The notes: generated by a model not told the origin, from the sequence alone. Shown: positions 578-51,816, counted from the stretch's first letter. The stretch is 64,000 bases of DNA from a virus (IMGVR_UViG_2563366895_000001:27011-91010), one strand, 5' to 3'. Program-made: numbers and translations.

Positions 578-3700
<3,123 letters not shown>

Positions 3701-3817
3701 TTCGATAATGATTTTTGGCCCTGAAAGCGCCTCCCACAATCCCATATAAAGCGCGCTAAAAAATATACAAATATTTTCGCAAATGTTAGACTGAGGAGAA
3801 GTAAAGAGGAGCGAAAA

Positions 3818-4150
3818 ATGACCACAGTTCGTCGTATGCCAGCCCTCAGCCCGGAAGAAATTCGTAAAATTTCGAAGAATGCCGTGGCGACGGTCGCTGC
3901 GGAAAAAATTGTTACTAACAAAACGGCCTTTGTAAAGGCTGCCGTTGCAGGCGTGATTGCAGGCAAAAAAAATGAAGTTAGTCGTAAAGGCGATAGCCAA
4001 ACTGTCCGTAAAGTAGCAGCTGCATCAGCACGGGATGCAAAGGCTTACAGCCTGTCTCGTCAATTAGCAATGTCCGTCCTATCACAGAGCAGCGGGCGGG
4101 AATATATTCAAGAATCGTTTAATCAGGTTCGTAAAAATAAAAAAGCGTAA
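3818..4150 (+). CDS. Hypothetical small basic protein
   Basis: 110-aa ORF preceded by AAGAGGAG Shine-Dalgarno-like sequence. Confidence 0.4.
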   Translation: MTTVRRMPALSPEEIRKISKNAVATVAAEKIVTNKTAFVKAAVAGVIAGKKNEVSRKGDSQTVRKVAAASARDAKAYSLSRQLAMSVLSQSSGREYIQESFNQVRKNKKA

Positions 4151-4203
4151 CCAACGTGATATTTACAAGCTCCTTTGAAGTGGCTTTTTTATTGTGGTGA
4201 AAC

Positions 4204-4914
4204 ATGACTCAGCAAACAAAGAAATGGATTTTTACTGAGCTGGTAAAAGATCCAAATAATATTGAGCAGCTTCTTTCGTATGCGGTTTATAAAGGTTTTA
4301 AGGACGAAATAGCTCGTAACGCTCGCGCGGCCGGTAAAAAAGAATACGAGATTGAGGCTGAGCTTGCGGCCTACCACGATCAATGCCTCAAGTCACCGAG
4401 GCAGCTTCAAGTATTTAAAAGAAGCGCACAAGAAATTTTAGATGGATACGTTTCTGGCGTCAACAACGAGTTGCAGACAAGGTTAGAAACAATTTTTGAG
4501 CAGCAAGAGAATATTTATCAAAACCAAATCAAAGCCCTCCAGAAAGAGAAAGATGAGGCAAACAAAAATGCTATAAAGCAGCTGGTTAAAGGTGTAGAAA
4601 AATACAGCAAGCAAATAAAGAAACCCGTGGGGTTTTGGGAATGTGCCCAAGTCTATGGGATTGCCATATTAAAATTTCTTTTTTCTGGTGTACCAAAACT
4701 TTTTGCCACAGCCTTCTCAATAGGCCTTTTGTTTACAATATGGGGACTCTTTAACGGTGATGCCGTAACAGGTCTGAGAAAAGGACTTTATAAAATGGTA
4801 GATATAACCGTGCCAGGAGAAAAGGTTAACACTACGCAAAATGATGTTGGCTCAATTAGCCCTAACCAGAAGAGTGTTACGGCAAATAAACAGCCCCACG
4901 ATGGAGGGGCATAA
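4204..4914 (+). CDS. Hypothetical membrane-anchored coiled-coil protein (visibly AT-rich cargo gene)
   Basis: 236-aa ORF; central coiled-coil-like region; C-terminal hydrophobic segments (ILKFLFSGVPKLFATAFSIGLLFTIWGLF); AT-rich compared with flanks. Confidence 0.45.
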   Translation: MTQQTKKWIFTELVKDPNNIEQLLSYAVYKGFKDEIARNARAAGKKEYEIEAELAAYHDQCLKSPRQLQVFKRSAQEILDGYVSGVNNELQTRLETIFEQQENIYQNQIKALQKEKDEANKNAIKQLVKGVEKYSKQIKKPVGFWECAQVYGIAILKFLFSGVPKLFATAFSIGLLFTIWGLFNGDAVTGLRKGLYKMVDITVPGEKVNTTQNDVGSISPNQKSVTANKQPHDGGA

Positions 4915-5290
4915 CCATCAGTGGCGGCTGTAGCTCGGACGGATATAACGCATCGGAGGCGACGTAACGGTTGAGCGGCGCGCGAACGAGCTGGAGCCAT
5001 AATAGCGTTTGGTCGCTGGTGGCGTTGTAGCGCGGCGCCGGATGGTAGTTTTTAATGACGGTCGTATGATGCGTGATGTTGATATTGCTGCTGTGTCCAT
5101 AGCCACCACCGCTCATCAGGTGTCCCATCAGCAAGTCGCTGAAGACCCCGCTGTTATCGTAATAGTGGACCCCTCCCGGCGCGGATGGCTGAGCGACGAT
5201 TACCGGTGCCGGGCCGTCACGGTCACACAAGCTGAGCGCAACCAGGGCAAACAGCACGTCACCAGCAATCAACAGATGTTTCTTTTTCAT
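4877..5290 (-). CDS. Putative lipoprotein (P1 plp-like position)
   Basis: Start taken at internal ATG 5290 (MKKKHLLIAGDVLFALVALSLCD, signal peptide with Cys) preceded by GGGAG; lies after the tRNA region as plp does in P1. Confidence 0.4.
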   Translation of the reverse strand: MKKKHLLIAGDVLFALVALSLCDRDGPAPVIVAQPSAPGGVHYYDNSGVFSDLLMGHLMSGGGYGHSSNINITHHTTVIKNYHPAPRYNATSDQTLLWLQLVRAPLNRYVASDALYPSELQPPLMVMPLHRGAVYLP

Positions 5291-5463
5291 CTCCCGCGTG
5301 CGCTCAGCCGCATTCGCCACAACGGAAAGAGCATCTATGGCGCACATCGCGGGAAAAAGCCCACGGTAGAGAGTCGAACTCTACAAATGCTCTTATCTGT
5401 TGTGCACTCCGTTTCGAGGAATAGATGTCAGAGTCGTACCGGCAGAATCATCACATTGGTATA

Positions 5464-5970
5464 TGGTGATGGTTGATGGAATTGAACCGCCGTAGCTATT
5501 TCTTTATATCCAATAAACCTGCGTGGACTTTTCTGTGGCAATTCGCACAGAGGACAATGTACTTCCTTACTTCTTCCTTAAGTCGCTTTCGAGATCGACT
5601 ACATAGGTTAGAAGGATCGCCTTCTTTGCCGCCAGGGTTATCATGGTGGAGGTCCAGAACTATAGGTTCTTTTTCTCCACAATTTTGGCACCCGATGAAG
5701 CGTTTATAACGAGATAAAAACTGACGGTTTGAACTTGTTTTTCTCGTTCTTGTTAACTTTATAAGCCGGCGCCTTGATTCATTGCTTGCATAACTCAGAG
5801 CATCTCTTTCCTTGGCGCACACCTTGCAAATATTTTGCAGGCCATCGCTCTTTCCTTTGTTTTTATGGAAATCGGAAGCAGGTTTTAGTGCTTTGCATTT
5901 GCTACAAATTTTCATCAGTATCCCACTGCTTACAAGGCAGACGCTCTAACCACTGAGCTACACCATCACT
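5464..5970 (-). tRNA. tRNA-Thr(UGU)-like gene in two pieces: 5' part at 5926..5967, 3' part with encoded CCA at 5464..5497, separated by a 428-bp insert
   Basis: 5' part reads GATGGTG-TA-GCTC-AGTGGTTA-GAGC-G-TCTGC-CTTGTAA-GCAG (D-arm, anticodon arm, anticodon TGT); 3' part reads A-GCTAC-GGCGG-TTCAATT-CCATC-AACCATC-A-CCA; acceptor halves pair 6/7 and the anticodon stem is completed only when the two parts are joined. Confidence 0.5.
5496..5915 (-). CDS. HNH endonuclease (homing-endonuclease-like) occupying the tRNA insert
   Basis: N-terminal Cys cluster (CSKCKALKP...ICKVCAKERD) and C-terminal HNH motif (NCGEKEP...LDLHHDNPGGKEGDPSNL...LCANCHRKVH). Confidence 0.7.
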   Translation of the reverse strand: MKICSKCKALKPASDFHKNKGKSDGLQNICKVCAKERDALSYASNESRRRLIKLTRTRKTSSNRQFLSRYKRFIGCQNCGEKEPIVLDLHHDNPGGKEGDPSNLCSRSRKRLKEEVRKYIVLCANCHRKVHAGLLDIKK

Positions 5971-6635: not shown

Positions 6636-6652
6636 AAATTTATTAGAGCAAT
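6636..6652 (-). promoter_or_regulatory. C1-repressor operator-like site (16/17 to ATTGCTCTAATAAATTT), overlapping the dmt stop codon
   Basis: Plus strand reads AAATTTATTAGAGCAAT, the reverse complement of the P1 C1 operator consensus. Confidence 0.55.
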
Positions 6653-9600
6653 GTAGCCATAACGTCATGAGCAACACCACGAGTGTCTCCCTTACAAGAC
6701 ACAGAACGTCTGGCAAAGAGAGGTTCCACTCTGAAGCCACTGTCCTGATAAAGTTCTCTGATGTTTGGCGCGCCACTGTTAGTAATGAGTACCTTTGCAC
6801 CTCGGCGATGAGCATCCGTCAACAGAGACACCAGGCGTTTTTGCTCTTCAAACTTAAAGTCATGACCGGAATAGTTCGTGAATCCCTCTGTATTTGGAAG
6901 CGGTTCATATGGCGGATCGCAAAAAATGACATCTCCTTCTCCGGCAGCTTCAATCACCGCAGCAAAATCACCACATACAAACTCAGAACGCCCTTCCGCA
7001 CCAAGGAAGACTTCCATCTCCTGCAATGGGAAATACGGAGTTTTATACTTCCCATAACCGACATTGAACTCACCGGCTTGGTTGTAACGCGTCAATCCAT
7101 TAAAACAATGTCGGTTCAGGAACAAAAACGCCGCTGCGAGATGTAAATCATCATAGACTTGTTTGTTAAACGCATTCCGTACTGCCAGGAATCCCTCCTG
7201 GGTGTTGTAGTCCAGGAAGAAACGATGTGCCAGAGTGATAAGTGAATGCGCCTCGCGTTGCAGAGTCTTGTAAAAGTTAATCAGGTCAGCATTCACATCA
7301 TTTAGCAGATTTTCCTGGTATCCGGCATTTATGAAGACAGCTCCGCCACCAACGAAAGGTTCAATCAGGCGCTTCCCTTCTGGCAAATAGCGAAAGATTT
7401 GTTCCAGAACACCAAATTTTCCACCAGCCCATTTGAATATGGACCGTTCGAATTCTGCCGCTGGTTTAACTTTTCGCTCTTTTGTTTCACTTCCTTCTTT
7501 CTGCCGACATACGGCCTTAGTAATCCGATCGCCAATCCAGCACATTACTGGTATTGCCATACTATTGCCGATCGCTTTGTAACGCGGTCCGTCAGCTGCA
7601 AGCATCGCGGCCTCTTCTTCGCTTAAATCTGGATAGTGATTGCGAAGATATGCCAGTTCATCTGAATTAACTGTTTTACGCTTTTCCGTCGGGATCAACG
7701 TATGCCCATCAGGAAAACCTTGCAGCCTTTCACATTCGACAGGGGTAAGACGGCGCATTCTACCGTCGCCGAGCAATACAATTGGTGCTTCATGGTTACA
7801 TGTCAAAGTTGGTGCCGAATTATCGGTTTTTATCTCAGCCCCTCCTTGCCCATGTGCCATGGCAATTATGTTTGTATCATCGCAAGTTCTGATAGCGATG
7901 TTTGAAGTATATCTGGTAGTTTCCTTCCCCTCGCCTCTGCTCGGCGCAATATCCCGGCGCACGCCTTCGAACTCAAAAAGTACCGTTGCGGGATCGAGGT
8001 CTGTTCGAGCACTTGCGACAACAAACACGCGTCGGCGTCGTTGTGCCACTCCGAAGTATTGGGCATCAAGGATTCTCCAGGCCACTTTTCGCTGCGATCC
8101 ATAAATACAACCACACTGCGGCCACTTTGGAGCATGGCAACCGGTTTTGCCATCCCACCGCCAGAACGCGTTACTTTTTCCTGATTCAGGTCGATCACCT
8201 GGTTCAAATGGCGCATCTTCTCCAGCCAATCCGGCAAGGAAACATCCGAAGGCGTTATCTGCCGATGACAAGACTCCTGGGACATTTTCCCAGACGATAA
8301 CGGCTGGTTTGAGAAATGACTCAGCCCGTTTGTCGTCAATTGCATTTGCAAGCTCCACATACTTTAAAGTTAGCGCGCCACGCTCATCATCAAGCCCACC
8401 ACGTAATCCCGCGATACTGAATGCCTGACAGTTATGGACCACCGCACCATTGAGGATATAGGAATGATCACCTTCGACTTCTATGTTGTATACAGTATCT
8501 AGGCCTACCGATTTAAACTCTTTGACTGTTCGTAAAAGCATTCCATGAGCCAATCTTGATTTACGTGACAATTTCTGCGGGCAGATTGTTACCTGATAAT
8601 AATTCCGTTGATTTACCACGCGATCCTCGATCACTTTTTTGGGCTCAACTTCAATAAAGCTGACCGAAGAAACATAACCACAAGTCTGTGACAACCCCGC
8701 AACGCCCCAAGCAAGCGCAGGACTAACACTATTAATTCTAAATCCCGCTTTACCACTTGGTGTCCCATCAGTATCAAGATAGCCTTGTAAAAACACATGA
8801 CGCAATGGATGCGACATCACCCATGCAGGGATACGCTTAGCATGGCTTAACTCGCCAAAATGTTCATTAAGCCAATTGGCATAACACGTATCATTCAAGG
8901 TTACTTTGATGCTCCCTCGGATTTCGCTTGCCACGGAAAATATGTTTTCTGGTATGCGGCAATGAAACTTTCTCAATTTCTGGCAATTTATGCCAAAAAC
9001 AACCGCCTTCTTAGATTTACCTCTCCATCTCCTAATATATCCATCGCCAACATAAGCGCCCGCAAGATACATAGCCTGTTCTTCAGACAAGAACCGAGAA
9101 CAAATATCTGGAGATGCAATATTGAAATTAGTTAGAGCGCACCATTGATATCCCGGCATATCACATGCTGCTCGCCATTCCGGTTCAGACAACAACTCTC
9201 TCTTAAAATATGTGCCATTTTTCCGGGTGTTTTGGGCTTTCCACCGAACAGCCAGGAAGGGATGGTCATTGGTTGTTCTTATACCTAAAGGCTGCCCAAC
9301 GGCATTAAGTAACCCCGTATTAGCTATTTTTGAACCAACTCTTTTTACTTGTTGTAACCGCCCGAGATGACTGACTACGTAATCGCCAGGGCAAACATCT
9401 TCTATTGGTTTATAACCATTTTTACAAAGAACCATATGCCCCGCGGTAAAACATGGTGTTCCCCCGACGAGCACGTCAGGGGATTCGATTTCCCCAGCCA
9501 AGACTTTTTTGGCAAGTTTTGTCATGTCGCCAAGGTTGGCGACATGGGGCCAGCGGAGCGCAAGAACGGCCGATGGAAAAGGCTCGATTTCAGCAAACCA

Positions 9601-9684
9601 CGCCGGACGCATACCCAACGGTTCCCAGGCAATACTCGCGGCTTCAATTCCACTGCAAACAGATCCATAGCACAGCTCTTTCAC
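6643..9684 (-). CDS. dmt: Bifunctional DNA methyltransferase: N-terminal C5-cytosine MTase domain (interrupted by an intein) fused to a C-terminal Dam-like N6-adenine MTase domain
   Basis: C5-MTase motifs [12 protein letters not shown] (PCQ), VWENVPG (ENV), [17 protein letters not shown]; Dam-like motifs PFVGGGAVF and CDPPYEP in the C-terminal third; stop overlaps nothing but start overlaps hrdC stop (9681..9684). Confidence 0.85.
8431..9453 (-). other. Intein (341 aa) with LAGLIDADG homing-endonuclease domain, inserted at the catalytic Cys of the C5-MTase PCQ motif
   Basis: Extein GGTP | intein CFTAGHMVL...([13 protein letters not shown] ... [11 protein letters not shown]) ...ILNGAVVHN | extein CQAFSIAG; codons checked on the minus strand (TGT at 9453..9451, AAC at 8433..8431, TGT-CAG following). 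Confidence 0.8.
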
Positions 9685-13270: not shown

Positions 13271-13309
13271 AGGCCGCGCCACGTCTGGCCTAGAAGTGTA
13301 TCGCGATGT

Positions 13310-13410
13310 GTGCTGGAGGGAAAACGATGTGTGCTGGCGGGATAAAAATGTGTGCTGACGGGTTGCTAATGTGTGCTGGCGGGATATAGGATGTGTGCTG
13401 ACGGGAAAGC
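13310..13410. repeat. Five direct iterons (P1 incC-like) upstream of repA
   Basis: Repeated (G)ATGTGTGCTGG(A/C)GGG units at about 21-bp spacing. Confidence 0.7.
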
Positions 13411-13464
13411 CTGGGTAGTTATCATCACTTATAAAAACTATCCACATAATTCGGAAAAAGTAAT

Positions 13465-14325
13465 ATGAATCAATCATTTATCTCCGATATTCTTTACGCA
13501 GACATTGAAAGTAAGGCAAAAGAACTAACAGTTAATTCAAACAACACTGTGCAGCCTGTAGCGTTGATGCGCTTGGGGGTATTCGTTCCGAAGCCATCAA
13601 AGAGCAAAGGAGAAAGTAAAGAGATTGATGCCACCAAAGCGTTTTCCCAGCTGGAGATAGCTAAAGCCGAGGGTTACGATGATATTAAAATCACCGGTCC
13701 TCGACTCGATATGGATACTGATTTCAAAACGTGGATCGGTGTCATCTACGCGTTCAGCAAATACGGCTTGTCTTCAAACACCATCCAGTTATCGTTTCAG
13801 GAGTTCGCTAAAGCCTGTGGTTTCCCCTCAAAACGTCTGGATGCGAAACTGCGTTTAACCATTCATGAATCACTTGGACGCTTGCGTAACAAGGGTATCG
13901 CTTTTAAGCGCGGAAAAGATGCTAAAGGCGGCTATCAGACTGGTCTGCTGAAGGTCGGGCGTTTTGATGCTGACCTTGATCTGATAGAGCTGGAGGCCGA
14001 TTCGAAGCTCTGGGAGCTGTTCCAGCTTGATTATCGCGTTCTGTTGCAACACCACGCCTTGCGTGCCCTTCCGAAGAAAGAAGCTGCACAAGCCATTTAC
14101 ACTTTCATCGAAAGCCTTCCGCAGAACCCGTTGCCGCTATCGTTCGCGCGAATCCGTGAGCGCCTGGCTTTGCAGTCAGCTGTTGGCGAGCAAAACCGTA
14201 TCATTAAGAAAGCGATAGAACAGCTTAAAACAATCGGCTATCTCGACTGTTCAATTGAGAAGAAAGGCCGGGAAAGTTTTGTAATCGTCCATTCTCGCAA
14301 TCCAAAGCTGAAACTTCCCGAATAA
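13465..14325 (+). CDS. repA: Plasmid replication initiator RepA (P1 RepA-like, 286 aa)
   Basis: 286-aa ORF bracketed by matching iteron arrays; length and context as in the P1 R replicon. Confidence 0.8.
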   Translation: MNQSFISDILYADIESKAKELTVNSNNTVQPVALMRLGVFVPKPSKSKGESKEIDATKAFSQLEIAKAEGYDDIKITGPRLDMDTDFKTWIGVIYAFSKYGLSSNTIQLSFQEFAKACGFPSKRLDAKLRLTIHESLGRLRNKGIAFKRGKDAKGGYQTGLLKVGRFDADLDLIELEADSKLWELFQLDYRVLLQHHALRALPKKEAAQAIYTFIESLPQNPLPLSFARIRERLALQSAVGEQNRIIKKAIEQLKTIGYLDCSIEKKGRESFVIVHSRNPKLKLPE

Positions 14326-14620
14326 GTGTGTGCTGGAGGGCAGCTGCATTTGAAAAATGTGCGCTGCCGGGAATGCCTGCCCATTTTCCTGTTTTTGGTG
14401 TGCGCTGGAGGGTTGCGCCACGCAGTTTGCCCAGACATTCCCTCCAGCACACATCTAACCATCCAAGTTTCCCTCCAGCGCACATCTAATCTTCTATCTT
14501 TCCCTTCAGCGCACATATTTGATACCAGCGATCCCTCCACAACACATAATTCAATGCGACTTCCCTCTATCGCACATTCTGGCCCTGCATCATCCCTCCA
14601 GCACACATCTAATAGCCTCA
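14326..14620. repeat. Nine iterons in both orientations (P1 incA-like copy-control locus)
   Basis: Three forward units (GTGTGCTGGAGGG-type) then six inverted units (CCCTCCAGCACACATC-type) immediately after repA. Confidence 0.7.
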
Positions 14621-14718
14621 TCGCTATTTCTTTACGTGCAATAATTTACGCACGAATCAAAATAAGTTGCACGTAGCAGAATCAAACGTACAATTCACTC
14701 ATACGAAATGATAAGGAG

Positions 14719-15930
14719 ATGATGATGAAACGCGATTACGGCGGTGTCGGCACCATAGCTCTTCGTGCAAGCGCATTACTTAAGGCCATGAGTCAGGATA
14801 TTGAAGATCAGCGCAAAGAGTTCAATCAGACCGAGTATTATCAGACGTTCACTCGTAACGCTGTGGCAAAGTTGCCGAAGCTGAGCCGCCGCATTGTGGA
14901 GCAGGCCATCAAAGAGATGGAAGATGATGGGTACCAGTTCAACAAGAAACAGGTCGGTAACGTTGAACAGTACGCGCTGACCATCCAGAACGTCATTGAT
15001 ATCTATGCCCACCGTAAGATCCCAAAATATCGCGACATTCACAAATCGCCTTACGTTATTTTTGTCGTAAACCTGAAGGGTGGCGTATCCAAAACGGTTT
15101 CCACAGTCACGTTGGCGCACGCTCTGCGTGTGCATCAGGATTTACTGCGTCACGATCTGCGCATTCTGGTAATTGACCTTGACCCTCAGGCATCCAGCAC
15201 AATGTTCCTCGACCATACTCACAGTATTGGTTCCATCCTGGAAACCGCCGCGCAGGCGATGCTGAACGACCTGGACGCGGAGACGCTACGCAAAGAGGTG
15301 ATTCGTCCGACCATCGTTCCTGGCGTAGACGTGATTCCAGCCTCTATCGACGATGGCTTTGTTGCCAGCCAATGGAAAGAGCTGGTTGAAGAGCATCTTC
15401 CCGGACAAAATCAGTACGAAATCCTTCGACGCAATATCATTGATCGTGTTGCGGATGATTATGACTTTATCTTTATTGATACCGGTCCACACCTGGATCC
15501 GTTCCTGCTCAACGGTCTGGCGGCCAGCGATTTGCTGCTTACCCCTACCCCACCAGCCCAGGTTGACTTCCACTCAACACTGAAATATCTCACCCGTCTG
15601 CCAGAAATGCTGGAGCAACTGGAGGAGGAAGGCGTAGAACCGCGTTTAAGCGCCAGCATTGGTTTTATGTCGAAGATGACCGGCAAGCGCGATCACGAGA
15701 CATCACACAGCCTTGCGCGTGAGGTTTACGCCAGCAACATTCTGGACTCTTCTCTGCCTCGTCTGGATGGATTTGAGCGATGCGGCGAGTCTTTCGACAC
15801 CGTAATCAGTGCCAACCCGCAATCGTATCCAGGCAGTGCAGAGGCGCTGAAGAAGGCACGAACCGAGGCCGAGCGTTTCACTAAGGCTGTGTTTGATCGA
15901 ATTGAGTTTGTTAGGGGTGAGGCGGCATGA
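14719..15930 (+). CDS. parA: Partition ATPase ParA (P1/P7 ParA-like, Walker-type)
   Basis: Deviant Walker A NLKGGVSKTVSTV; conserved C-terminus LPRLDGFERCGESFDTVISANP...KAVFDRIEF; stop overlaps parB start. Confidence 0.85.
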   Translation: MMMKRDYGGVGTIALRASALLKAMSQDIEDQRKEFNQTEYYQTFTRNAVAKLPKLSRRIVEQAIKEMEDDGYQFNKKQVGNVEQYALTIQNVIDIYAHRKIPKYRDIHKSPYVIFVVNLKGGVSKTVSTVTLAHALRVHQDLLRHDLRILVIDLDPQASSTMFLDHTHSIGSILETAAQAMLNDLDAETLRKEVIRPTIVPGVDVIPASIDDGFVASQWKELVEEHLPGQNQYEILRRNIIDRVADDYDFIFIDTGPHLDPFLLNGLAASDLLLTPTPPAQVDFHSTLKYLTRLPEMLEQLEEEGVEPRLSASIGFMSKMTGKRDHETSHSLAREVYASNILDSSLPRLDGFERCGESFDTVISANPQSYPGSAEALKKARTEAERFTKAVFDRIEFVRGEAA

Positions 15931-16892
15931 AAAAAATAGTTTCCCGTGGACGAGTGCTGGGCAAGAATAGCTCCGAGTTTGCTCGCATGCTTGAAGGCAG
16001 TGAAGGCACCAAAACCTTTACCCTAAAATCTGGCCGCCAGGCTAAATTTTTGCTTACCGTTGTGCTGAGTGGTGAGATTGAGTCGCGCACGTTCGTTGAC
16101 CCGGCAGTTAACGGCCGCGATCAGTCTCTGCTCACCCCTGAGTCGGTAAGCGATATTTCCCGCACCATTAAATTGCAACAGTTCTTCCCGGCTATCGGTC
16201 GTATGGTTGGGGAGCGCATTGAGGTATTGGACGGATCACGTCGCCGCGCTGCGTGTATCTTCAATGAAACGAAATTTGAGATTCTGGTGACGAAAGATGA
16301 TATCAGCCTGGCGGATGCACGCCAGCTGGCTATTGATATCCAGACAGCCCGCGAACACACCCTGCGCGAACTGGGTAAACGCTTCGAGGTTATGTATGGT
16401 AAGAGCATGACCAAAGAAGAGATCGCCCGCGCTGAGAACATTTCAAAGGCTAAAGTTACGCGCGCGTTCCAGGCGGCAGCGGTGCCGGATGAGATGATTG
16501 CTGTCTTCCCTGTTGCCAGCGATCTCGCCCTTCCAGATTACCAGTTACTGCTCCAGATCTCCGAGGATGCCAACGCTAAAAGCGTGCCTATTGAAGAGCT
16601 GGTTGATACGGTGCGCGAACGAATTGCAGAGACTGAGGGCGCGAAAGAGGATAAAGCGAAGATACTGGCTATCTTCAAAGCGGAAAGCAAAAGCCTGAAG
16701 CCCGCGCCGGTTAAATCTGTGGTGGTTGAGAAGCTGCGAGACTTCTCTGACCGTCGCCAATATGCCCGAAAGAAGTCCGATCCGAAAAAACGGATTGTCG
16801 CCTACGAGTTCTCCAGACTCCCGTCTGAAGTGCAAACTGAAATTGACGAAGCAATAAAAAAAATCATTGGGAAAATGTCTGCTGGGGAATAA
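15927..16892 (+). CDS. parB: Partition protein ParB-like
   Basis: Translationally coupled to parA (ATGA overlap); 321 aa; position as in P1; sequence more divergent than ParA. Confidence 0.7.
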   Translation: MKKIVSRGRVLGKNSSEFARMLEGSEGTKTFTLKSGRQAKFLLTVVLSGEIESRTFVDPAVNGRDQSLLTPESVSDISRTIKLQQFFPAIGRMVGERIEVLDGSRRRAACIFNETKFEILVTKDDISLADARQLAIDIQTAREHTLRELGKRFEVMYGKSMTKEEIARAENISKAKVTRAFQAAAVPDEMIAVFPVASDLALPDYQLLLQISEDANAKSVPIEELVDTVRERIAETEGAKEDKAKILAIFKAESKSLKPAPVKSVVVEKLRDFSDRRQYARKKSDPKKRIVAYEFSRLPSEVQTEIDEAIKKIIGKMSAGE

Positions 16893-16929
16893 TCCCGCTG
16901 GTGGGAGGCGGCTTTAGCCCCCTCCCCTG

Positions 16930-17060
16930 TCTAAAATGTCCCGCGTCTATTTCATGTATAAATATATGATATATATAGATATTCATGAAAAATTTCAGAC
17001 TGAAATTCCCACGGTTTCACGCCTGTTTTACTTGCCCCCCTCCCCCGCACAAAAAATTTA
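16930..17060. promoter_or_regulatory. Centromere-like region (parS candidate)
   Basis: AT-rich core flanked by ATTTCA-type heptamers (ATTTCAT, AATTTCAG, GGTTTCAC) directly downstream of parB; exact boxes not resolved. Confidence 0.35.
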
Positions 17061-21968: not shown

Positions 21969-22478
21969 ATGGGGCACAATAACACTAAGGGAAACCGTAA
22001 ATTTATTAAGGGCCGCTATACTGCCAACGCGGCCAAAGGCGAACGACTGGTATCTTCTGAATTCCAGCTCACTTTTGCAGGCTATGAAGATATCAGTGTA
22101 CTTGTTCGTACGTCGCAAATCCCTGAAATGACTCGCGAGGATGTGGAGGACTATGGTCCGAATGGTGTGAAGTTCAACCAGCACGGACCAATTCGAAACT
22201 CTGGGGAAATCCAGGTCCAGTGCGTGGAGACTATCGAAGGCGATATTCTTCAGTTCATCAAGGATCGCATTGCGGCGAAGGACTATGTTGATATCACGAT
22301 GGCTGCTACCCCTGAATCCAAATCTTCCGGGGTTAACGCTGTGACAAAAGCTGCTACAACAATTGAAATGTTGGACTGCAAAATCTACAGTGATGCAATC
22401 GACTTTAGTACCGAAGATGTGACTGCCGCTGTGCGCCCGTCACTTCGTATCGTCTACAACTGGATTGAGTGGGATTAA
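21969..22478 (+). CDS. Hypothetical tail-associated protein
   Basis: 169-aa ORF followed by a strong terminator. Confidence 0.3.
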   Translation: MGHNNTKGNRKFIKGRYTANAAKGERLVSSEFQLTFAGYEDISVLVRTSQIPEMTREDVEDYGPNGVKFNQHGPIRNSGEIQVQCVETIEGDILQFIKDRIAAKDYVDITMAATPESKSSGVNAVTKAATTIEMLDCKIYSDAIDFSTEDVTAAVRPSLRIVYNWIEWD

Positions 22479-22497: not shown

Positions 22498-22520
22498 AAA
22501 GCTCCTTCGGGAGCTTTTTT
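22498..22520 (+). terminator. Rho-independent terminator
   Basis: AAAGCTCC-TTCG-GGAGCTTT followed by TTT. Confidence 0.6.
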
Positions 22521-22582
22521 ATTTGGAGAGGAAAGGGTGCATTGAGGATACCTGACACACGAAGAGTGGCGGGGATCTCTCC

Positions 22583-23921
22583 CATAAGCGCTAACTTAAG
22601 GGTTGTGGTATTACGCCTGATATGATTTAACGTGCCGATGAATTACTCTCACGATAACTGGTCAGCAATTCTGGCCCATATTGGTAAGCCCGAAGAACTG
22701 GATACTTCGGCACGTAATGCCGGGGCTCTAACCCGCCGCCGCGAAATTCGTGATGCTGCAACTCTGCTACGTCTGGGGCTGGCTTACGGCCCCGGGGGGA
22801 TGTCATTACGTGAAGTCACTGCATGGGCTCAGCTCCATGACGTTGCAACATTATCTGACGTGGCTCTCCTGAAGCGGCTGCGGAATGCCGCCGACTGGTT
22901 TGGCATACTTGCCGCACAAACACTTGCTGTACGCGCCGCAGTTACGGGTTGTACAAGCGGAAAGAGATTGCGTCTTGTCGATGGAACAGCAATCAGTGCG
23001 CCCGGGGGCGGCAGCGCTGAATGGCGACTACATATGGGATATGATCCTCATACCTGTCAGTTCACTGATTTTGAGCTAACCGACAGCAGAGACGCTGAAC
23101 GGCTGGACCGATTTGCGCAAACGGCAGACGAGATACGCATTGCTGACCGGGGATTCGGTTCGCGTCCCGAATGTATCCGCTCACTTGCTTTTGGAGAAGC
23201 TGATTATATCGTCCGGGTTCACTGGCGAGGATTGCGCTGGTTAACTGCAGAAGGAATGCGCTTTGACATGATGGGTTTTCTGCGCGGGCTGGATTGCGGT
23301 AAGAACGGTGAAACCACTGTAATGATAGGCAATTCAGGTAATAAAAAAGCCGGAGCTCCCTTTCCGGCACGTCTCATTGCCGTATCACTTCCTCCCGAAA
23401 AAGCATTAATCAGTAAAACCCGACTGCTCAGCGAGAATCGTCGAAAAGGACGAGTAGTTCAGGCGGAAACGCTGGAAGCAGCGGGCCATTTGCTATTGCT
23501 AACATCATTACCGGAAGATGAATATTCAGCAGAGCAAGTGGCTGATTGTTACCGTCTGCGATGGCAAATTGAACTGGCTTTTAAGCGGCTCAAAAGTTTG
23601 CTGCACCTGGATGCTTTGCGTGCAAAGGAACCTGAACTCGCGAAAGCGTGGATATTTGCTAATCTACTCGCCGCATTTTTAATTGACGACATAATCCAGC
23701 CATCGCTGGATTTCCCCCCCAGAAGTGCTGGATCCGAAAAGAAGAACTAACTCGTTGTGGAGAATAACAAAAATGGTCATCTGGAGCTTACAGGTGGCCA
23801 TTCGTGGGACAGTATCCCTGACAGCCTACAAAACGCAATTGAAGAACGCGAGGCATCGTCTTAACGAGGCACCGAGGCGTCGCATTCTTCAGATGGTTCA
23901 ACCCTTAAGTTAGCGCTTATG
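22583..23921 (+). mobile_element. IS186-like insertion sequence (IS4 family), 1339 bp, with 10-bp target-site duplication
   Basis: Perfect 23-bp terminal inverted repeats CATAAGCGCTAACTTAAGGGTTG (22583..22605 and 23899..23921); direct repeat GGATCTCTCC at 22573..22582 and 23922..23931. Confidence 0.8.
22632..23750 (+). CDS. insL: IS186-like transposase
   Basis: 372-aa ORF filling the IS; translation (MNYSHDNWSAILAHIGKPEELDTSARNAGALTRRREIRD...) matches my recollection of IS186 InsL. Confidence 0.8.
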   Translation: MPMNYSHDNWSAILAHIGKPEELDTSARNAGALTRRREIRDAATLLRLGLAYGPGGMSLREVTAWAQLHDVATLSDVALLKRLRNAADWFGILAAQTLAVRAAVTGCTSGKRLRLVDGTAISAPGGGSAEWRLHMGYDPHTCQFTDFELTDSRDAERLDRFAQTADEIRIADRGFGSRPECIRSLAFGEADYIVRVHWRGLRWLTAEGMRFDMMGFLRGLDCGKNGETTVMIGNSGNKKAGAPFPARLIAVSLPPEKALISKTRLLSENRRKGRVVQAETLEAAGHLLLLTSLPEDEYSAEQVADCYRLRWQIELAFKRLKSLLHLDALRAKEPELAKAWIFANLLAAFLIDDIIQPSLDFPPRSAGSEKKN

Positions 23922-23943
23922 GGATCTCTCCCCGCCAGGTCTC

Positions 23944-24099
23944 TTACCTTTCAGATTCGTAGGCTGTGAAGACAGTGACCTCCGTCTGGCCGGTTCGGAT
24001 TCGTACCTCGCAGAGGTCTTTCCTCGTTACCAGTGCCGTCACAATGACGGTTAAACAGATGACGATCAGAGCGATTAACATCGCTTTTTGCTGCTTCAT
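23944..24099 (-). CDS. hok: Hok/Gef-family type I toxin (51 aa); not in the supplied ORF track
   Basis: Hand translation MKQQKAMLIALIVICLTVIVTALVTRKDLCEVRIRTGQTEVTVFTAYESER, close to HokC/Gef. Confidence 0.7.
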   Translation of the reverse strand: MKQQKAMLIALIVICLTVIVTALVTRKDLCEVRIRTGQTEVTVFTAYESER

Positions 24100-24157
24100 A
24101 GCCTGCTTCTCCTTGACCTTTTGGTCGGTAAGAGGCTAATCTACGTATGCTAAGCAT
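23951..24157 (-). CDS. mok: Possible mok-like overlapping reading frame
   Basis: 68-aa ORF in another frame spanning the hok ORF, as mok does in hok/sok loci. Confidence 0.35.
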   Translation of the reverse strand: MLSIRRLASYRPKGQGEAGYEAAKSDVNRSDRHLFNRHCDGTGNEERPLRGTNPNRPDGGHCLHSLRI

Positions 24158-24280
24158 AGATATGGCCTCAGATTAATGTTAAGCGTCTTGCAGGACGCGT
24201 AATGTTATCTGGGGCTTTCTTCTATCTGCTTTTCGGGTAATGCCTGAAGCAGATAGCCTCAAGCACCCGCAACGATTGTA

Positions 24281-24526
24281 TCAATGTCTGGCTTTTTTTC
24301 TATAGAAATCACCTGGAAGGGTGAATATCCACATCAAAAGAAATGTTGCAGCAAACATGATCCCTAATGGCCAGACCGCGCCAAAGAAAATCCATACTAA
24401 GATCTCCTCTGTTCGTTCTTTGCGGTCGATATCGACAAGCATTTTTCGGCTGATCATGTATACACAGAAGCCAATACAAACATATCCTGCAAAAGAGATC
24501 GCTAACTGTAAAAAATCAGATTGCAT
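24281..24526 (-). CDS. Small membrane protein (two predicted TM segments)
   Basis: Start taken at internal ATG 24526 (MQSDFLQLAISFAGYVCIGFCVYMI...) to avoid overlap with repL. Confidence 0.3.
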   Translation of the reverse strand: MQSDFLQLAISFAGYVCIGFCVYMISRKMLVDIDRKERTEEILVWIFFGAVWPLGIMFAATFLLMWIFTLPGDFYRKKARH

Positions 24527-24576
24527 CTCCGACCTCAAACTGAAAACGCCAGGTGACTCCAGATTAGAGCAATTTA

Positions 24577-25422
24577 TCACCCTCTGAATCCTGCCGGTAT
24601 ACCCCATTGTTCGTTATCTTTATTTTTGGCTAAAACCGCATTAAGAGCTTCGTTTACCGTCATGCAATGCGGCAGATTATCGAAGTTTGATATCCCGCCA
24701 ATATCAGGAGAACGCTTGTCCTTCAGGTAAGCATATTTCCGCGCTGCCGCCTCTACTTTCTGCTTGAACTCATGTTTTTGAGCGCGTTTTTTGGATAACC
24801 GCAGATTGTCAGCCTTTGCTTTTGCCTCAGCGATCCATGAAGTCAATTTTTTGAGTCTGGTCGTTCCGGCACCGCCGGAAACTGATCTTTTTGTTTTTTT
24901 AACTTGTGACTTCTTATTCTTTATTGCCACGTCATCCTGACAGGGGGAGGGGGTATCATTTTGACATGGGGGTGTGGATAAAAAATTAAATAAAGCCAAT
25001 GTCTTAGCGAGAACAGCTTTAACCTTGGTTGCCGCTGAAGAGATCTTTAATTTGCTTTCAATCAGCGCATTTTTGGCTTGTTGTGCGAAGGCCAAAAAGG
25101 ATGGTGTAAACCGGTACAGGTTAGCGCGACGTTCACGGTGATCGCCGATAACAATCTCTACAGACAGGATTCCTTTGTTTACAGCTTCACGGAATGCACG
25201 AACGACGGTTGATTGGCTATAACCAGTTTCTGCCGCGATCAGGCGGTGAGGCTTGTGAATGAAGTATTCACTGGTTGTTGCCGCGAGATTTGCACATTGC
25301 GACAGGATATGCCCGGCGCTACGGGATAGACCGGAGTGTGTTACAAAGCAGGCCAATTCATAGCCAGAAAAAGTAAAATCGCTCATCGTTATACAGCTCA
25401 GGAAAGTGACTTTAGCCAGCAT
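24577..25422 (-). CDS. repL: Putative lytic-replicon initiator (P1 RepL position, 281 aa)
   Basis: Immediately downstream of kilA in the same orientation; HTH-like N-terminal region; length matches my recollection of RepL. Confidence 0.45.
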   Translation of the reverse strand: MLAKVTFLSCITMSDFTFSGYELACFVTHSGLSRSAGHILSQCANLAATTSEYFIHKPHRLIAAETGYSQSTVVRAFREAVNKGILSVEIVIGDHRERRANLYRFTPSFLAFAQQAKNALIESKLKISSAATKVKAVLAKTLALFNFLSTPPCQNDTPSPCQDDVAIKNKKSQVKKTKRSVSGGAGTTRLKKLTSWIAEAKAKADNLRLSKKRAQKHEFKQKVEAAARKYAYLKDKRSPDIGGISNFDNLPHCMTVNEALNAVLAKNKDNEQWGIPAGFRG

Positions 25423-41400: not shown

Positions 41401-42765
41401 ACTGGCAATGCTGCAACTGCAACAAAACTGCAAACAGCACGCACAATAGGCGGAGTGTCATTCGATGGTAGTGCCAATATCGACCTGCCGGGCGTGAATA
41501 AAGCAGGTAATCAGAGCACTACCGGTAATGCCGCAACCGCAACGAAACTTCAGACGGCCCGCACAATCGGCGGCGTGTCATTCGATGGCTCCGCCAATAT
41601 CAACCTGCCGGGTGTAAACATTGCTGGTAACCAGAACACGACCGGTAATGCAGCTACGGCTACCAAATTGCAAACAGCGCGTACCATTAATGGGGTTTCA
41701 TTTGACGGTTCTGCGAATATTTCACTGTCACCAGCAAATATTGGTTGCCCGGCATCTCCTACTGGTTGGTTAACAACAGGTAATAACGGTGAGTCAATAA
41801 CGACAGCCCAGTTAGTTACTTTGTTGCAAAATAACGGGGCATTCAATACGAAAGCATGGATCGCTCGTTGTGCATGGGCGTATGCGAATAGTGCATCCAT
41901 ACCAGACAGTGAAACTGGTTGTGGCATTATTCCACTGGCGGGTGCTGTGATAGAAGTATTCAGCAATAATACCAACAATTACACCATTCGAATAACAACG
42001 GCCACTACGACAAATGTCTCTGGTGCACTCACTAATGCGGAGTTTATCTATGTGTCTAATGGCTCAAGTTATTCACCTGGATGGCGCAGAGCGTATAACA
42101 CTAAAAATAAACCTACTACTGCTGACCTTGGCCTGAGCGATGCAAGTGGATACGTTGGACGCCTTGTAAACACTCGAATTTTCACTTCATCAGGTACGTA
42201 CACCCCGACACCAGGAACTAAACGAATCAGGGTCACAATTACGGGCGGCGGTGGCGGAGGGGGTGGCTGCCAGGCTACATCCAATAACGAAACGTTTTTC
42301 GGTGCAGGCGGTGGGGCCGGCGGGACAGTAATTGTCACGCTGACCCTGACGAAGGATAGTTATCCTGTCACTATCGGCGCAGGTGGGGGCGGCGGTGTTG
42401 GTGCGACGAACGGCCTCAAGGGCGGTGATAGCTCGTTCGGAACGGTAATAGCCCCTGGCGGTGAAGGCGGCGGGAAAGTAGGAGTCACAAACACGAACGG
42501 TGGTAATGGAGGCGCGCCGAATACTGGTGATGTCCGCATTATTGGTGGGCATGGAGGAGACGGTCAGTCCGGAAATATCAGCGTCAGTGGTGAAGGGGGA
42601 TCATCGTTCTGGGGGGGCGGTGGTCGCGCAGGCGCTGGCGGTGGCGTTATCGGTCGGGCATATGGTTCGGGCGGCGGTGGTGCATACGATGCCGGTTATA
42701 GCGGAACCAGTATGACGGGCGGGAAAGGCGCTGCAGGGATTTGTATTATCGAGGAGTTTGCATAA
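38461..42765 (+). CDS. S: Tail fibre protein with tandem fibre repeats and Gly-rich C-terminal domain
   Basis: Start taken at ATG 38461 after AAGGA (listed ORF begins upstream in the same frame); three ~60-aa repeats (TGTPTAPTAAQSTNSTQIANTAFV...); at least seven ~32-aa repeats (GNQNTTGNAATATKLQTARTIGGVSFDGSANI.LPGVN); poly-Gly-rich C-terminus. Confidence 0.8.
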   Translation: MNDVTVVTSVTYPSPESLALVADVQYHEPYLSAALNRKFRGIVDPGFYAGFFPKPGGGMNLLITSVDGDKTAGAASVNIGEFYQVTIQQRKDISLALSAGKKYAIVLKGRYLLGEDTYQVNTASHIHAAEFVARTYTDSYQLGDGELLVCTVNIPAGVSAITQEMIDVSDRIDLTIGIEISDSVTSTRSDVAASSLAVKKTYDLAKSKYTAQDASTTQKGLVQLSSATNSDSETMAATPKAVKSVKELADTKAPIESPELTGTPTAPTAAQSTNSTQIANTAFVKAAITALINGAPGALDTLKEIAAAINNDPNFSTTINNALALKAPLASPALTGIPTAPTAAQGTNNTQIATTAYVRAAISALVGSSPEALDTLNELAAALGNDPNFATTMTNALAGKQPLDATLTALAGLTTGANKLPYFTGTDTVSQTDLTSVGRDILAKTSTLAVIQYLGLREIGTSGEKIPLLSTANTWSARQTFNGGITGALTGNADTATKLKTARTIGGVAFDGTANINLPGVNVAGNQNTSGNAATATKLQTARTINGVSFDGSKNIELTPRSIGTINSTTMSFIGGAGWFKLATVTMPQASSVVYISLIGSSGYNVNSPMQAGISELVLRAGNGNPKGLTGALWRRTSVGFTNFAWVNTSGDTYDVYVEIGNYATGVNIQWDYTSNASVTIHTSPNYTVDKPTGLTDGTVYVIYSSHIKPTATDVGALPITGGNLNGGLTATGEIISKSANGLRIAYGNYGFFIRNDGSNTYFMLTDSGNSLGTYNSLRPLIINNANGTVTIGNGLNVTGGINGSLNGNASTATKLQKARNINGVQFDGSADISIPTITSRGRVTALTGTTQGDAAGLQMYEAYNNGYPTAYGNILHLKGATSRGEGELLIGWSATSGAHAPILIRSRRDNTDAAWSEWAQVYTSKDSIPGVNTTGNQNTTGNAASATKLQTARTIGGVSFNGTANIDLPGVNKTGNQSTTGNAATATKLQTARTIGGVSFDGSANIDLPGVNKAGNQSTTGNAATATKLQTARTIGGVSFDGSANINLPGVNIAGNQNTTGNAATATKLQTARTINGVSFDGSANISLSPANIGCPASPTGWLTTGNNGESITTAQLVTLLQNNGAFNTKAWIARCAWAYANSASIPDSETGCGIIPLAGAVIEVFSNNTNNYTIRITTATTTNVSGALTNAEFIYVSNGSSYSPGWRRAYNTKNKPTTADLGLSDASGYVGRLVNTRIFTSSGTYTPTPGTKRIRVTITGGGGGGGGCQATSNNETFFGAGGGAGGTVIVTLTLTKDSYPVTIGAGGGGGVGATNGLKGGDSSFGTVIAPGGEGGGKVGVTNTNGGNGGAPNTGDVRIIGGHGGDGQSGNISVSGEGGSSFWGGGGRAGAGGGVIGRAYGSGGGGAYDAGYSGTSMTGGKGAAGICIIEEFA
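41245..41725 (+). repeat. Four tandem 96-bp coding repeats inside the tail fibre gene
   Basis: Four consecutive 32-aa units of the GNQ.TTGNAA.ATKLQTARTIGGVSF.G.ANI.LPGVN type. Confidence 0.6.
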
Positions 42766-43175
42766 TGAATACATCATATGCAGTTATTGAAAATGGGATG
42801 GTTGTGAATGTCATTGTCTGGGATGGCGAGGCTGAATTCACAGTGCCGGATAATCAGCAGCTCATTAATATTTCTGATATCAGTGAGCAGCCCGGAATCG
42901 GCTGGGTGTATTCAGACGGGGGATTTACTGCACCACCCACTCCGGAACGTTCTCATGATGAACTGGTAGCTGACGCTGAACAGAAAAAACAGTCGCTGAT
43001 TGATACCGCAATGGCTTCCATTAGTCTTATTCAACTGAAATTACAGGCCGGGCGGAATCTTACGCAGGCTGAAACCACCCGTCTTAACGCTGTGTTGGAT
43101 TATATCAATGCGGTGACCGCAACGGATACCAGCACTGCACCAGATGTCAATTTTCCAGCGTTCCCGGAGGCGTAG
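42765..43175 (+). CDS. U: Tail fibre assembly chaperone (Tfa, P1 U-like)
   Basis: ATG overlaps the fibre stop (TAATG) after GAGGAG; 136 aa; typical Tfa size and position. Confidence 0.55.
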   Translation: MNTSYAVIENGMVVNVIVWDGEAEFTVPDNQQLINISDISEQPGIGWVYSDGGFTAPPTPERSHDELVADAEQKKQSLIDTAMASISLIQLKLQAGRNLTQAETTRLNAVLDYINAVTATDTSTAPDVNFPAFPEA

Positions 43176-43214
43176 CCCATTTAAAAAAATATTTGGAGCG
43201 CTGGAAGTAACGAC

Positions 43215-43467
43215 TGGTTCCAGTGCATCCTGATAAGATGATTACTGTTCATGCTTCAAGAGCGAGCGCATACTGCATCCAAGCCAATCTAACTTTCATT
43301 CGACCAGAGTGTCACCTCTCAAAAGCATTTTTTAACTCTGGTCGTTCAGCCTTTTTGCCGCTCGCCTTGTCCTCAAAAATTAGCTCACATCCTGCGCTTT
43401 CAAGAGCATTTCGTTGTAAAGCAGTGTTTTGTTCATTTGTTGATACGCGTACATAGCCTATTAGCAT
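43215..43467 (-). pseudogene. cin: Truncated, decayed cin-like serine invertase gene
   Basis: Minus-strand hand translation from ATG 43467: MLIGYVRVSTNEQNTALQRNALESAGCELIFEDKASGKKAERPELKNAFER then stop; downstream in other frames GDTLVE and KLDWLGCSMRSLLKHEQ; matches the Cin/Hin/Gin N-terminus; the rest of the gene is absent. Confidence 0.6.
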
Positions 43468-50880: not shown

Positions 50881-50992
50881 CTCCCTGATTGTGCACAAAT
50901 AATCTGTTCTGATATGTTAATTGTGTACTTAAAGTAAACGCGTAGTGGCTTGCTTTAGGTTATGGAAGCAAGCCATTTCCTATTAAAGTAGA

Positions 50993-51598
50993 TCAAAAAA
51001 CTTTAATTTTGGCGTTTCGCTCACCACATATTGAGCACTTTAGCCGATTTTTTAAGTCTTCCAGAGTCAATCCTGAAGCTACATATTGTTTAATGTCTCT
51101 TTGAGAGAGTATCACTGGTTCACGGAACCTATAACCGCCGCAGAGATGTATTATCATTATCTCAGAATCATTTTCTAACCAGTCATTAAGAGTGTTGTGT
51201 GGTTTAGAAAGTCGCTCAATATCCAAACGCCATTGTTGGATTTCATTACTGTCCCAGTCGAGATTTAGTTTAGCACGTTGGGCAACGAACCGATGTTTTC
51301 CTCTGTTAATACTAGGTTCGTAGTCTTTTCGTTGATCGGTAGTAAGGTCCTCTTCGTATAGAAATGAATCATCGTTTTTATGAGTGGGTTCAAAAATTAC
51401 TTCAATAAAACTTGGCTCATACGCGTTAAAGCTTTTTTTTCTTATGAATATCCCTTGTGTACCACTCCCGTTTAAATCAGCACAAAAATTAACATCTATT
51501 CCTCGACGAAGTGCGAAAAAATAGCTATGTTCCCTCATGGCCACAGCTAATTTGGCTATATCTATAAGGTTGTGTATTTTATCAGAATATGTATTCAT
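50993..51598 (-). CDS. Hypothetical protein in a visibly AT-rich island
   Basis: Start taken at ATG 51598 (MNTYSDKIHNL...), the listed ORF starting at a TTG; C-terminal CSICGE; no recognised domain. Confidence 0.45.
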   Translation of the reverse strand: MNTYSDKIHNLIDIAKLAVAMREHSYFFALRRGIDVNFCADLNGSGTQGIFIRKKSFNAYEPSFIEVIFEPTHKNDDSFLYEEDLTTDQRKDYEPSINRGKHRFVAQRAKLNLDWDSNEIQQWRLDIERLSKPHNTLNDWLENDSEIMIIHLCGGYRFREPVILSQRDIKQYVASGLTLEDLKNRLKCSICGERNAKIKVF

Positions 51599-51777
51599 GA
51601 GGCTTCCAAGCAAATATCATGACAAGCATAAAGTGTTAAAGTAATGTTACGCATCTTAACAAAGTGACTCTTGATTAATTTTAATTCGCCCTATCTTGCT
51701 TGTCTAACCATCATTGCATATACAGAGGGCAAAGAATTACACTTCATGTAATTTATTTCCCTTTAATTTCGTATTAT

Positions 51778-51806
51778 CAGGGTGCTCTCTGGCACCCCTT
51801 TTTATT
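51778..51806 (+). terminator. Hairpin plus T-run in plus-strand orientation at the edge of the AT-rich island
   Basis: GGGTGCTCTCTGGCACCC followed by CTTTTTATT. Confidence 0.4.
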
Positions 51807-51816
51807 CTAGTAAAAA

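Follow-up and report, generated by a model that had tools for sequence, protein, structure and literature searches.

In the hok/sok system of plasmid R1 the hok mRNA is kept inert during transcription by short-lived metastable hairpins at its 5'-end until the fold-back inhibition element, fbi, emerges. The activated mRNA is the form which is bound by Sok RNA, and this leads to rapid decay by RNase III.

In Escherichia coli K-12 an IS186 copy downstream of gef (hokC) is thought to disrupt fbi as well as normal processing. Transcription of gef and its control by an antisense RNA persist, and the mRNA has its end inside the IS some 200 nt past the stop codon (PMC3562002). Thus, the locus is not completely dead. 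PMC2654758 and PMC7232551, citing Pedersen and Gerdes (1999), describe the K-12 hok loci as non-functional due to IS insertion, point mutation or rearrangement. Homologues of hok/sok are listed among recurrent mobile-element hotspots in E. coli and Klebsiella pneumoniae (preprint 10.1101/527788), and a recent preprint surveying Hok makes no mention of IS186 or fbi. As for the element itself, saiSree, Reddy and Gowrishankar (2001) defined, according to the title of their paper (cited in PMC4618355 and PMC3045373), a consensus target sequence of IS186.

The window, i.e., the whole stretch of 64,000 nt which was analysed, is collinear with the P1-like sequence MH422554. The carrier is a P1-type phage-plasmid in which a hok/sok locus is flanked by bplB and repL. 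A full-length IS186 (IS421 isoform) has transposed into the sole G4-N6-C4 palindrome of this phage-plasmid, 3' of the hok stop codon. The IS is among the few segments of the window without a counterpart in the alignment with MH422554, and it is also absent from 216 plasmids with an empty site. Its left neighbours are pmgG and bplB, the latter ending at 22478; to its right hok, a mok-type frame, a 108-aa ORF and repL are located on the minus strand. The parts of the hok/sok locus are as follows.

22498-22517, either strand: bidirectional terminator hairpin serving bplB (plus) and the native 3'-end of the hok mRNA (minus); -11 kcal/mol, z -4.8
22535-22547, minus strand: fbi (fold-back inhibition) element, CCUCAAUGCACCC; the IS now lies between fbi and hok
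22568-22582, minus strand: distal half of the post-stop hairpin in the hok mRNA, which the IS has split; GGCGG and the duplication
23922-23936, minus strand: proximal half of the split hairpin, the duplication plus CCGCC, starting 7 nt past the hok stop
23944-24099, minus strand: intact hok toxin ORF, 51 aa; PF01848 HOK_GEF, E 2.4e-22, 78.7 bits
23951-24157, minus strand: overlapping reading frame of 68 aa from the ORF list, presumably mok by its position and overlap as in R1
24094-24268, minus strand: hok mRNA leader with the Sok target; Rfam RF01794, 114.9 bits, E 1.3e-26, full model 1-157
24113-24225, plus strand: sok antisense gene, by motif position with a -35 TTGACC at 24113 and a -10 TAATCT at 24137
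24257-24268, minus strand: 5'-terminal tac element, nt 1-12 of the mRNA, GGGUGCUUGAGG
24275-24302, minus strand: promoter-like site of the hok mRNA from a consensus scan, TAGAAA-16-TG-TACAAT; the position fits the Rfam-derived 5'-end

The match to RF01794 exceeds the gathering score of 59, and its end places the 5'-end of the hok mRNA at about 24268. This model, labelled "sok antitoxin", matches the hok-sense strand from the 5'-end of the mRNA to the hok start codon; what it models is thus the hok leader and not the antisense transcript itself. A second RF01794 hit is located just upstream (24211-24359, plus strand, 22 bits) and stays below the gathering score. This plus-strand sok hit and other weak Rfam hits below their gathering scores, CRISPR-DR46, ceN48 and sbrA, were set aside as chance matches or as the bplB terminator. 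Judged from complementarity to the hok leader, sok RNA would extend approximately from 24149 to 24225. In relatives the hok ORF is annotated as hokD or MokW. The hok and mok frames, the leader and the promoter-like sites of hok and sok are untouched by the insertion. The 108-aa ORF between hok/sok and repL (24281-24607, minus strand) has predicted hydrophobic stretches and no significant Pfam family, and is annotated as hypothetical in relatives.

The anatomy of the element is summarized next.

22573-22582: left copy of the target-site duplication, GGATCTCTCC, 10 bp
22583-23921, plus strand (that of the transposase gene): IS186/IS421 insertion sequence of the IS4 family, 1339 bp
22583-22605, plus strand: left terminal inverted repeat, CATAAGCGCTAACTTAAGGGTTG
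22638-23750, plus strand: intact InsL-type transposase gene, 370 aa from ATG; PF01609 DDE_Tnp_1, E 1.6e-26
23899-23921, plus strand: right terminal inverted repeat, its reverse complement equal to the left repeat, perfect 23/23
23922-23931: right copy of the target-site duplication, GGATCTCTCC

With 100% coverage, the IS shares 99.9% of its bases with copies from E. coli which are annotated as IS186B/IS421. This element was counted at 8691 places in E. coli, distributed over 2221 of 5426 complete genomes (median 3 in each genome that carries it); a full-length match of this quality to such an element excludes chance as far as the identity of the IS is concerned. The transposase, for which a mechanical ORF call starts at GTG 22632, shares 99% of its amino acids with E. 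coli copies over residues 1-372. The intact ORF and the intact ends suggest that this copy may be competent for transposition.

The preliminary description had asserted perfect 23-bp terminal inverted repeats, a flanking 10-bp direct repeat, and a hairpin of the G4-N6-C4 type with an 8-bp stem which reappears upon removal of the IS. All this holds. Both ends read CATAAGCGCTAACTTAAGGGTTG, and the same ends are found at seven other, independent IS186 copies. On both sides of the element stands GGATCTCTCC, and duplications recur at independent copies as well. On the plus strand GTGGCGGGGATCTCTCC is directly followed by CATAAGCGCTAACTTAAGGGTTG at the left junction and CAACCCTTAAGTTAGCGCTTATG by GGATCTCTCCCCGCCAGG at the right one; a repeat search returns 12 nt instead of 10, as the C and the G at the ends of the IS lengthen the match by one base on each side. 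An error at both junctions is very unlikely since identical junctions are present in 176 independent records. Excision of the IS together with one copy of the duplication yields GGCGGGGATCTCTCCCCGCC with an 8-pair stem and a 4-nt loop, equivalent to G4-N6-C4, which is uninterrupted in relatives with an empty site. The target thus is the G4-N6-C4 palindrome GGGGATCTCTCCCC with a 10-bp duplication. In the fold of the rebuilt mRNA the reconstructed hairpin GGCGGGGAGAGAUCCCCGCC has pair probabilities of 0.96-1.0. One detail has to be amended: the distance of 22 bp past the hok stop, formerly given for the hairpin, applies to the IS junction (22 nt), whereas the hairpin itself starts at 7 nt.

The IS186 consensus of saiSree, Reddy and Gowrishankar is said to be of the G4-N6-C4 form. 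The preference for such a target, as given in the preliminary description, is supported by seven of seven full-length copies and two further plasmid copies, all with 10-bp duplications. In the emptied window GGGG-N6-CCCC has a single occurrence, as it has in a 97-kb IS-free P1-like relative; in both sequences it is the hok hairpin. A search of these two sequences for further G4-N6-C4 or G4-N7-C4 targets returned no other N6 site. Hence, target preference alone predicts a hotspot at the hok hairpin and its recurrence; by the same token the target search cannot separate preference from selection. IS186 also resides in hairpins of this kind at terminators unrelated to hok. Plasmids which match the IS plus 11-15 nt of a hairpin arm were considered as carriers of further hok loci. 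The two which were checked, one in the leading region of an IncF plasmid and one in a Citrobacter plasmid, have ordinary terminator-type hairpins.

How common are the filled and the empty allele? The empty-site query consisted of the two flanks joined with a single copy of the duplication. Junction-spanning queries of 411 nt cannot be bridged across the 1349-bp insert. In PLSDB the counts are:

exact filled junction: 176 records
IS flipped at the same site: 34 records
empty site: 216 records (411-nt query)

Accordingly, about 49% of the records with the hok locus are filled, records not being independent events. An uninterrupted target is thus present in hundreds of IS-free relatives, from E. 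coli, Salmonella and Klebsiella, and several are 100% identical over 411 nt. With a query of 1452 nt the empty site was recovered as one uninterrupted alignment in 256 plasmid records and, in addition, in seven P1-like phage records. In a base-level alignment with MH422554 the palindrome is continuous where expected, with a single SNP in one of its arms. Canonical P1 (NC_005856/AF234172) and P7 align with the empty-site query over nt 1-621 only, i.e., on the bplB side. It follows that only a subgroup of P1-like elements has hok/sok between bplB and repL, and that the reference phage lacks it at this place. None of the approximately seven P1-like phage records with the hok locus is filled, compared with about half of the plasmid records; the phage records are few and partly redundant.

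The 176 records with the filled site come, among others, from E. coli, E. albertii, E. fergusonii and Shigella flexneri, and one is a K. pneumoniae plasmid. Many filled plasmids have 119-423 kb, i.e., they are larger than the P1 genome, which suggests cointegrates. pLAO33, in which the IS has the opposite orientation, has the same duplication of 10 bp but differs by three SNPs in the IS and in its flank haplotype. The SNPs and the haplotype favour at least two independent hits at the hok site over an in situ inversion of the IS as the origin of the two orientations. The event had also been called relatively recent. The perfect duplication, the identity of 99.9% and flanks identical to those of empty sites agree with this; on the other hand, the allele is common to at least 176 plasmids and not private to this one.

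The consequences for the hok mRNA were examined by folding. The mRNA of the empty allele, 426 nt long, was rebuilt by joining 24268-23932 to 22582-22494 (minus strand). The stop codon ends at nt 325 and the palindrome hairpin begins at nt 333. In the MFE structure nt 1-12 (tac) pair with nt 373-385 (fbi) with probabilities of 0.90-1.0. The duplex of tac with the 3'-UTR has -28.2 kcal/mol compared with -16.95 +/- 2.56 kcal/mol for shuffled 3'-UTRs, i.e., it is about 4 sd lower. This end pairing within an mRNA of about 400 nt is present only in the rebuilt empty allele, not in the window as it stands. There, the IS splits the post-stop hairpin and shifts fbi and the terminator 1349 nt further downstream. 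The earlier proposition that the insertion removed or displaced the 3' structure of the hok mRNA is supported by the folding; the effect on function is a presumed one. Predicted RNAs which are truncated at the junction or end in the IS have tac in a local 5' hairpin (nt 2-13 with 19-30). The IS-derived RNA was searched for a substitute fbi and none was found: the best duplex with tac has -20.5 kcal/mol, shuffled sequences -22.1 +/- 1.8 kcal/mol. The predicted MFE structure of a full read-through RNA of 1775 nt retains the tac-fbi pairs; hence, fbi is displaced, not destroyed.

Transcription from hok enters the right end of the IS and proceeds antisense to the transposase gene. Two hairpins on this path are candidates, and candidates only, for the end of a chimeric hok transcript:

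23349-23368, minus (hok-sense) strand: terminator-like hairpin followed by U6, -11 kcal/mol, z only -1.0
23774-23802, minus (hok-sense) strand: weaker hairpin followed by U5, -9.5 kcal/mol, z only -1.5

That the IS sits in the post-stop hairpin and has displaced fbi can be taken as practically certain. It is probable, taking this structural part and its effect together, that the insertion silences the addiction function via loss of the fbi-dependent, stable mRNA pool. Most hok transcripts would end or decay inside the IS and so be devoid of fbi. The tac of such an RNA would fold locally rather than with the 3'-end. The RNA could then not accumulate as the stable, inert and Sok-resistant pool which is needed for post-segregational killing; Sok RNA, which is abundant, would bind it directly, and degradation would follow. 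The module would be silenced, not de-repressed, and post-segregational killing presumably is lost in the filled allele. The plasmid would be without hok-mediated addiction, yet viable and with its partition system kept. The repeated hits at the hok hairpin would arise from the target preference of IS186. Viability of the filled allele is evident from its presence in 176 plus 34 public plasmids. Several points count against silencing. The hok ORF shows no decay, which is expected if the insertion is recent and is compatible with retained function, too. Further, fbi is displaced rather than deleted, a full read-through RNA keeps the tac-fbi pairs in its predicted fold, and the hairpins inside the IS are weak. 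The persisting transcription and antisense control of gef in K-12 (PMC3562002) also speak against a completely dead locus.

In another reading, hok/sok still works and the IS is a neutral passenger. RNA polymerase would cross the IS up to the native terminator, and the long mRNA would close by tac-fbi pairing and be processed. The intact hok ORF, leader and promoters are compatible with this, as are the weakness of the terminator-like hairpins in the IS and the tac-fbi pairs kept in the MFE structure of the 1775-nt RNA. We nevertheless regard it as unlikely. Long untranslated RNA antisense to a gene is a typical target of Rho and nucleases, and the stretch of 1.3 kb which would have to be traversed is a textbook substrate of this kind. 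Synthesis of some 1350 extra nt would probably outlast the metastable hairpins at the 5'-end. Further, the gef mRNA of K-12, which has the same geometry, is reported to end in the IS about 200 nt past the stop (PMC3562002), and IS-bearing hok loci of K-12 are reported as non-functional (PMC2654758, PMC7232551).

A different question is whether the frequency of the filled allele, about half of the records and in both orientations, reflects selection to disarm hok/sok beyond a mere target preference. The 210 filled versus 216 empty records, the at least two independent insertion events and the lack of a filled site in about seven P1-like phage records with the locus can be read in this way, and for E. 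coli and K. pneumoniae it has been proposed that mobile elements which disrupt hok/sok may confer an adaptive benefit (preprint 10.1101/527788). However, with a sole consensus IS186 target in the genome a hotspot is expected without selection, and IS186 inserts into the same kind of hairpin at terminators which have nothing to do with hok. The PLSDB counts are records and not independent events, the near-identical flanks of the 176 records suggest clonal spread, and the phage sample is tiny and partly redundant. Selection as an additional cause thus appears decidedly unlikely. The more far-reaching idea, that IS186 at the hok hairpin is a selected disarming and possibly marks lineages which turned from a phage to a plasmid-only or cointegrate lifestyle, deserves little credence at present. 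Finally, the idea that loss of fbi renders the hok mRNA constitutively translatable and raises Hok, with leaky toxicity or a sensitised trigger of abortive infection, is hardly credible: truncated and chimeric RNAs are indeed predicted to fold into the local 5' hairpin which characterizes the activated mRNA, but this form in R1 is also bound by Sok and rapidly degraded by RNase III, the sok promoter and gene are intact, and more than 200 plasmids stably carry the allele.

IS186 had been said to be largely confined to E. coli, which would indicate the host. A transposase search covered representatives of 185,579 species. In credible contigs a transposase of at least 98% identity was present only in Escherichia, with the exception of one 96-kb contig labelled Serratia marcescens, in which the IS resides in a terminator-type hairpin. 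The next relatives of the transposase are about 80% identical (Ca. Erwinia dacicola); the remaining ones do not exceed 46%. IS186 transposases of 98-100% identity were also encountered in assemblies labelled as Prevotella MAG, Marinobacter, Staphylococcus, Corallococcus, Streptomyces, Streptosporangium, Leifsonia and Rheinheimera. These loci lie on contigs of 381-2293 bp with a coverage, where named, of about 1-3x. The small, low-coverage IS186 contigs from outside Escherichia are probably contaminating E. coli DNA. The confinement to E. coli therefore stands for credible chromosomal copies, which are from Escherichia only, and fails for plasmids since plasmid-borne IS421 is present in Salmonella, Klebsiella and Citrobacter. 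The exact allele of the window recurs in one K. pneumoniae plasmid. Taken together, the distribution of IS186 makes an Escherichia host likely, not certain.

Other parts of the window differ from MH422554 as well. A P1 dmt-type double DNA methyltransferase ORF (6643-9684, minus strand, 1013 aa) has Hint_2, LAGLIDADG_3, D12 and C5 methylase domains. Its extra segment of 1020 bp (8431-9450) has no counterpart in MH422554, where the gene codes for 672 aa, and looks like an intein with a homing endonuclease which has been inserted into dmt. No megablast match to MH422554 was obtained for 3563-5941, 13299-16988, 40074-43266 and 50881-51815. The second of these encodes a Rep3-type repA together with parA/parB, a replicon which differs from the RepFIB of MH422554; 40074-43266 is located in the tail-fibre/invertible-segment region, and 3563-5941 and 50881-51815 contain ORFs without Pfam matches.

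What does the interrupted locus mean? IS186 beside hok genes is familiar from the first descriptions of the hok loci of K-12 onwards. The importance of another case is therefore modest, and no new question is opened. Two aspects appear useful. Automatic annotation reports an intact "HokD toxin", yet the architecture of the addiction mRNA is broken in about half of the P1-like plasmids with the locus. Consequently, toxin-antitoxin catalogues and predictions of plasmid stability overcount working modules. Further, filled and empty alleles which are identical apart from the IS constitute a natural experiment on fbi outside of plasmid R1.

The P1-plasmid locus shares with hok/sok of R1 the Hok peptide (PF01848), the overlapping mok frame, the RF01794 leader, the antisense promoter, the predicted pairing of the tac and fbi ends and a GC-rich hairpin past the stop. 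It differs from R1 in replicon and sequence, in that its 3' regulatory part is 1349 bp of IS away, and in that its function is predicted. At the lon promoter of E. coli, another IS186 hotspot, insertion likewise is repeated and site-specific in laboratory and natural strains (saiSree, Reddy and Gowrishankar 2001, cited in PMC4618355 and PMC3045373). At lon a promoter is disrupted and Lon lowered, often under selection, whereas in the window a 3' mRNA hairpin is hit and the architecture of the mRNA is affected.

The closest likeness is with hokC (gef)/IS186A and hokE/IS186B of K-12, which have the same IS, a homologous G4-N6-C4 hairpin, a 10-bp duplication, an intact ORF and a separated fbi. 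The IS is located 22 nt past the stop in the window and in hokC, and 21 nt past it in hokE and in a hokE-like gene of E. albertii. The K-12-type targets are GGCGGGGAGUGAUCCCCGCC for hokC and GCGGGGAGUAAUCCCCGC for hokE, the E. albertii arrangement is alike, and all have 10-bp duplications. The loop reads AGAGAU in the window compared with AGUGAU and AGUAAU in the K-12 loci. In a K-12-type hokC copy hok converges on the right end of the IS as in the window. Both orientations of the IS exist at hokC among strains. In E. coli 4/2-1 (NZ_CP023834, 1-2239) hokC lies between two insertion sequences: the CDS of an IS150 transposase reaches to about 100 nt before the hokC start codon, within the expected leader, and IS186 follows 22 nt past the stop, with the same duplication and an orientation opposite to that of the K-12-type copy. 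The loci of K-12 are chromosomal, whereas that of the window is situated between bplB and repL on a P1-type phage-plasmid. In this mobile-element setting it presumably was a working addiction module, not a chromosomal relic like the K-12 hok genes. We regard the P1-plasmid locus as one more instance of a known phenomenon.
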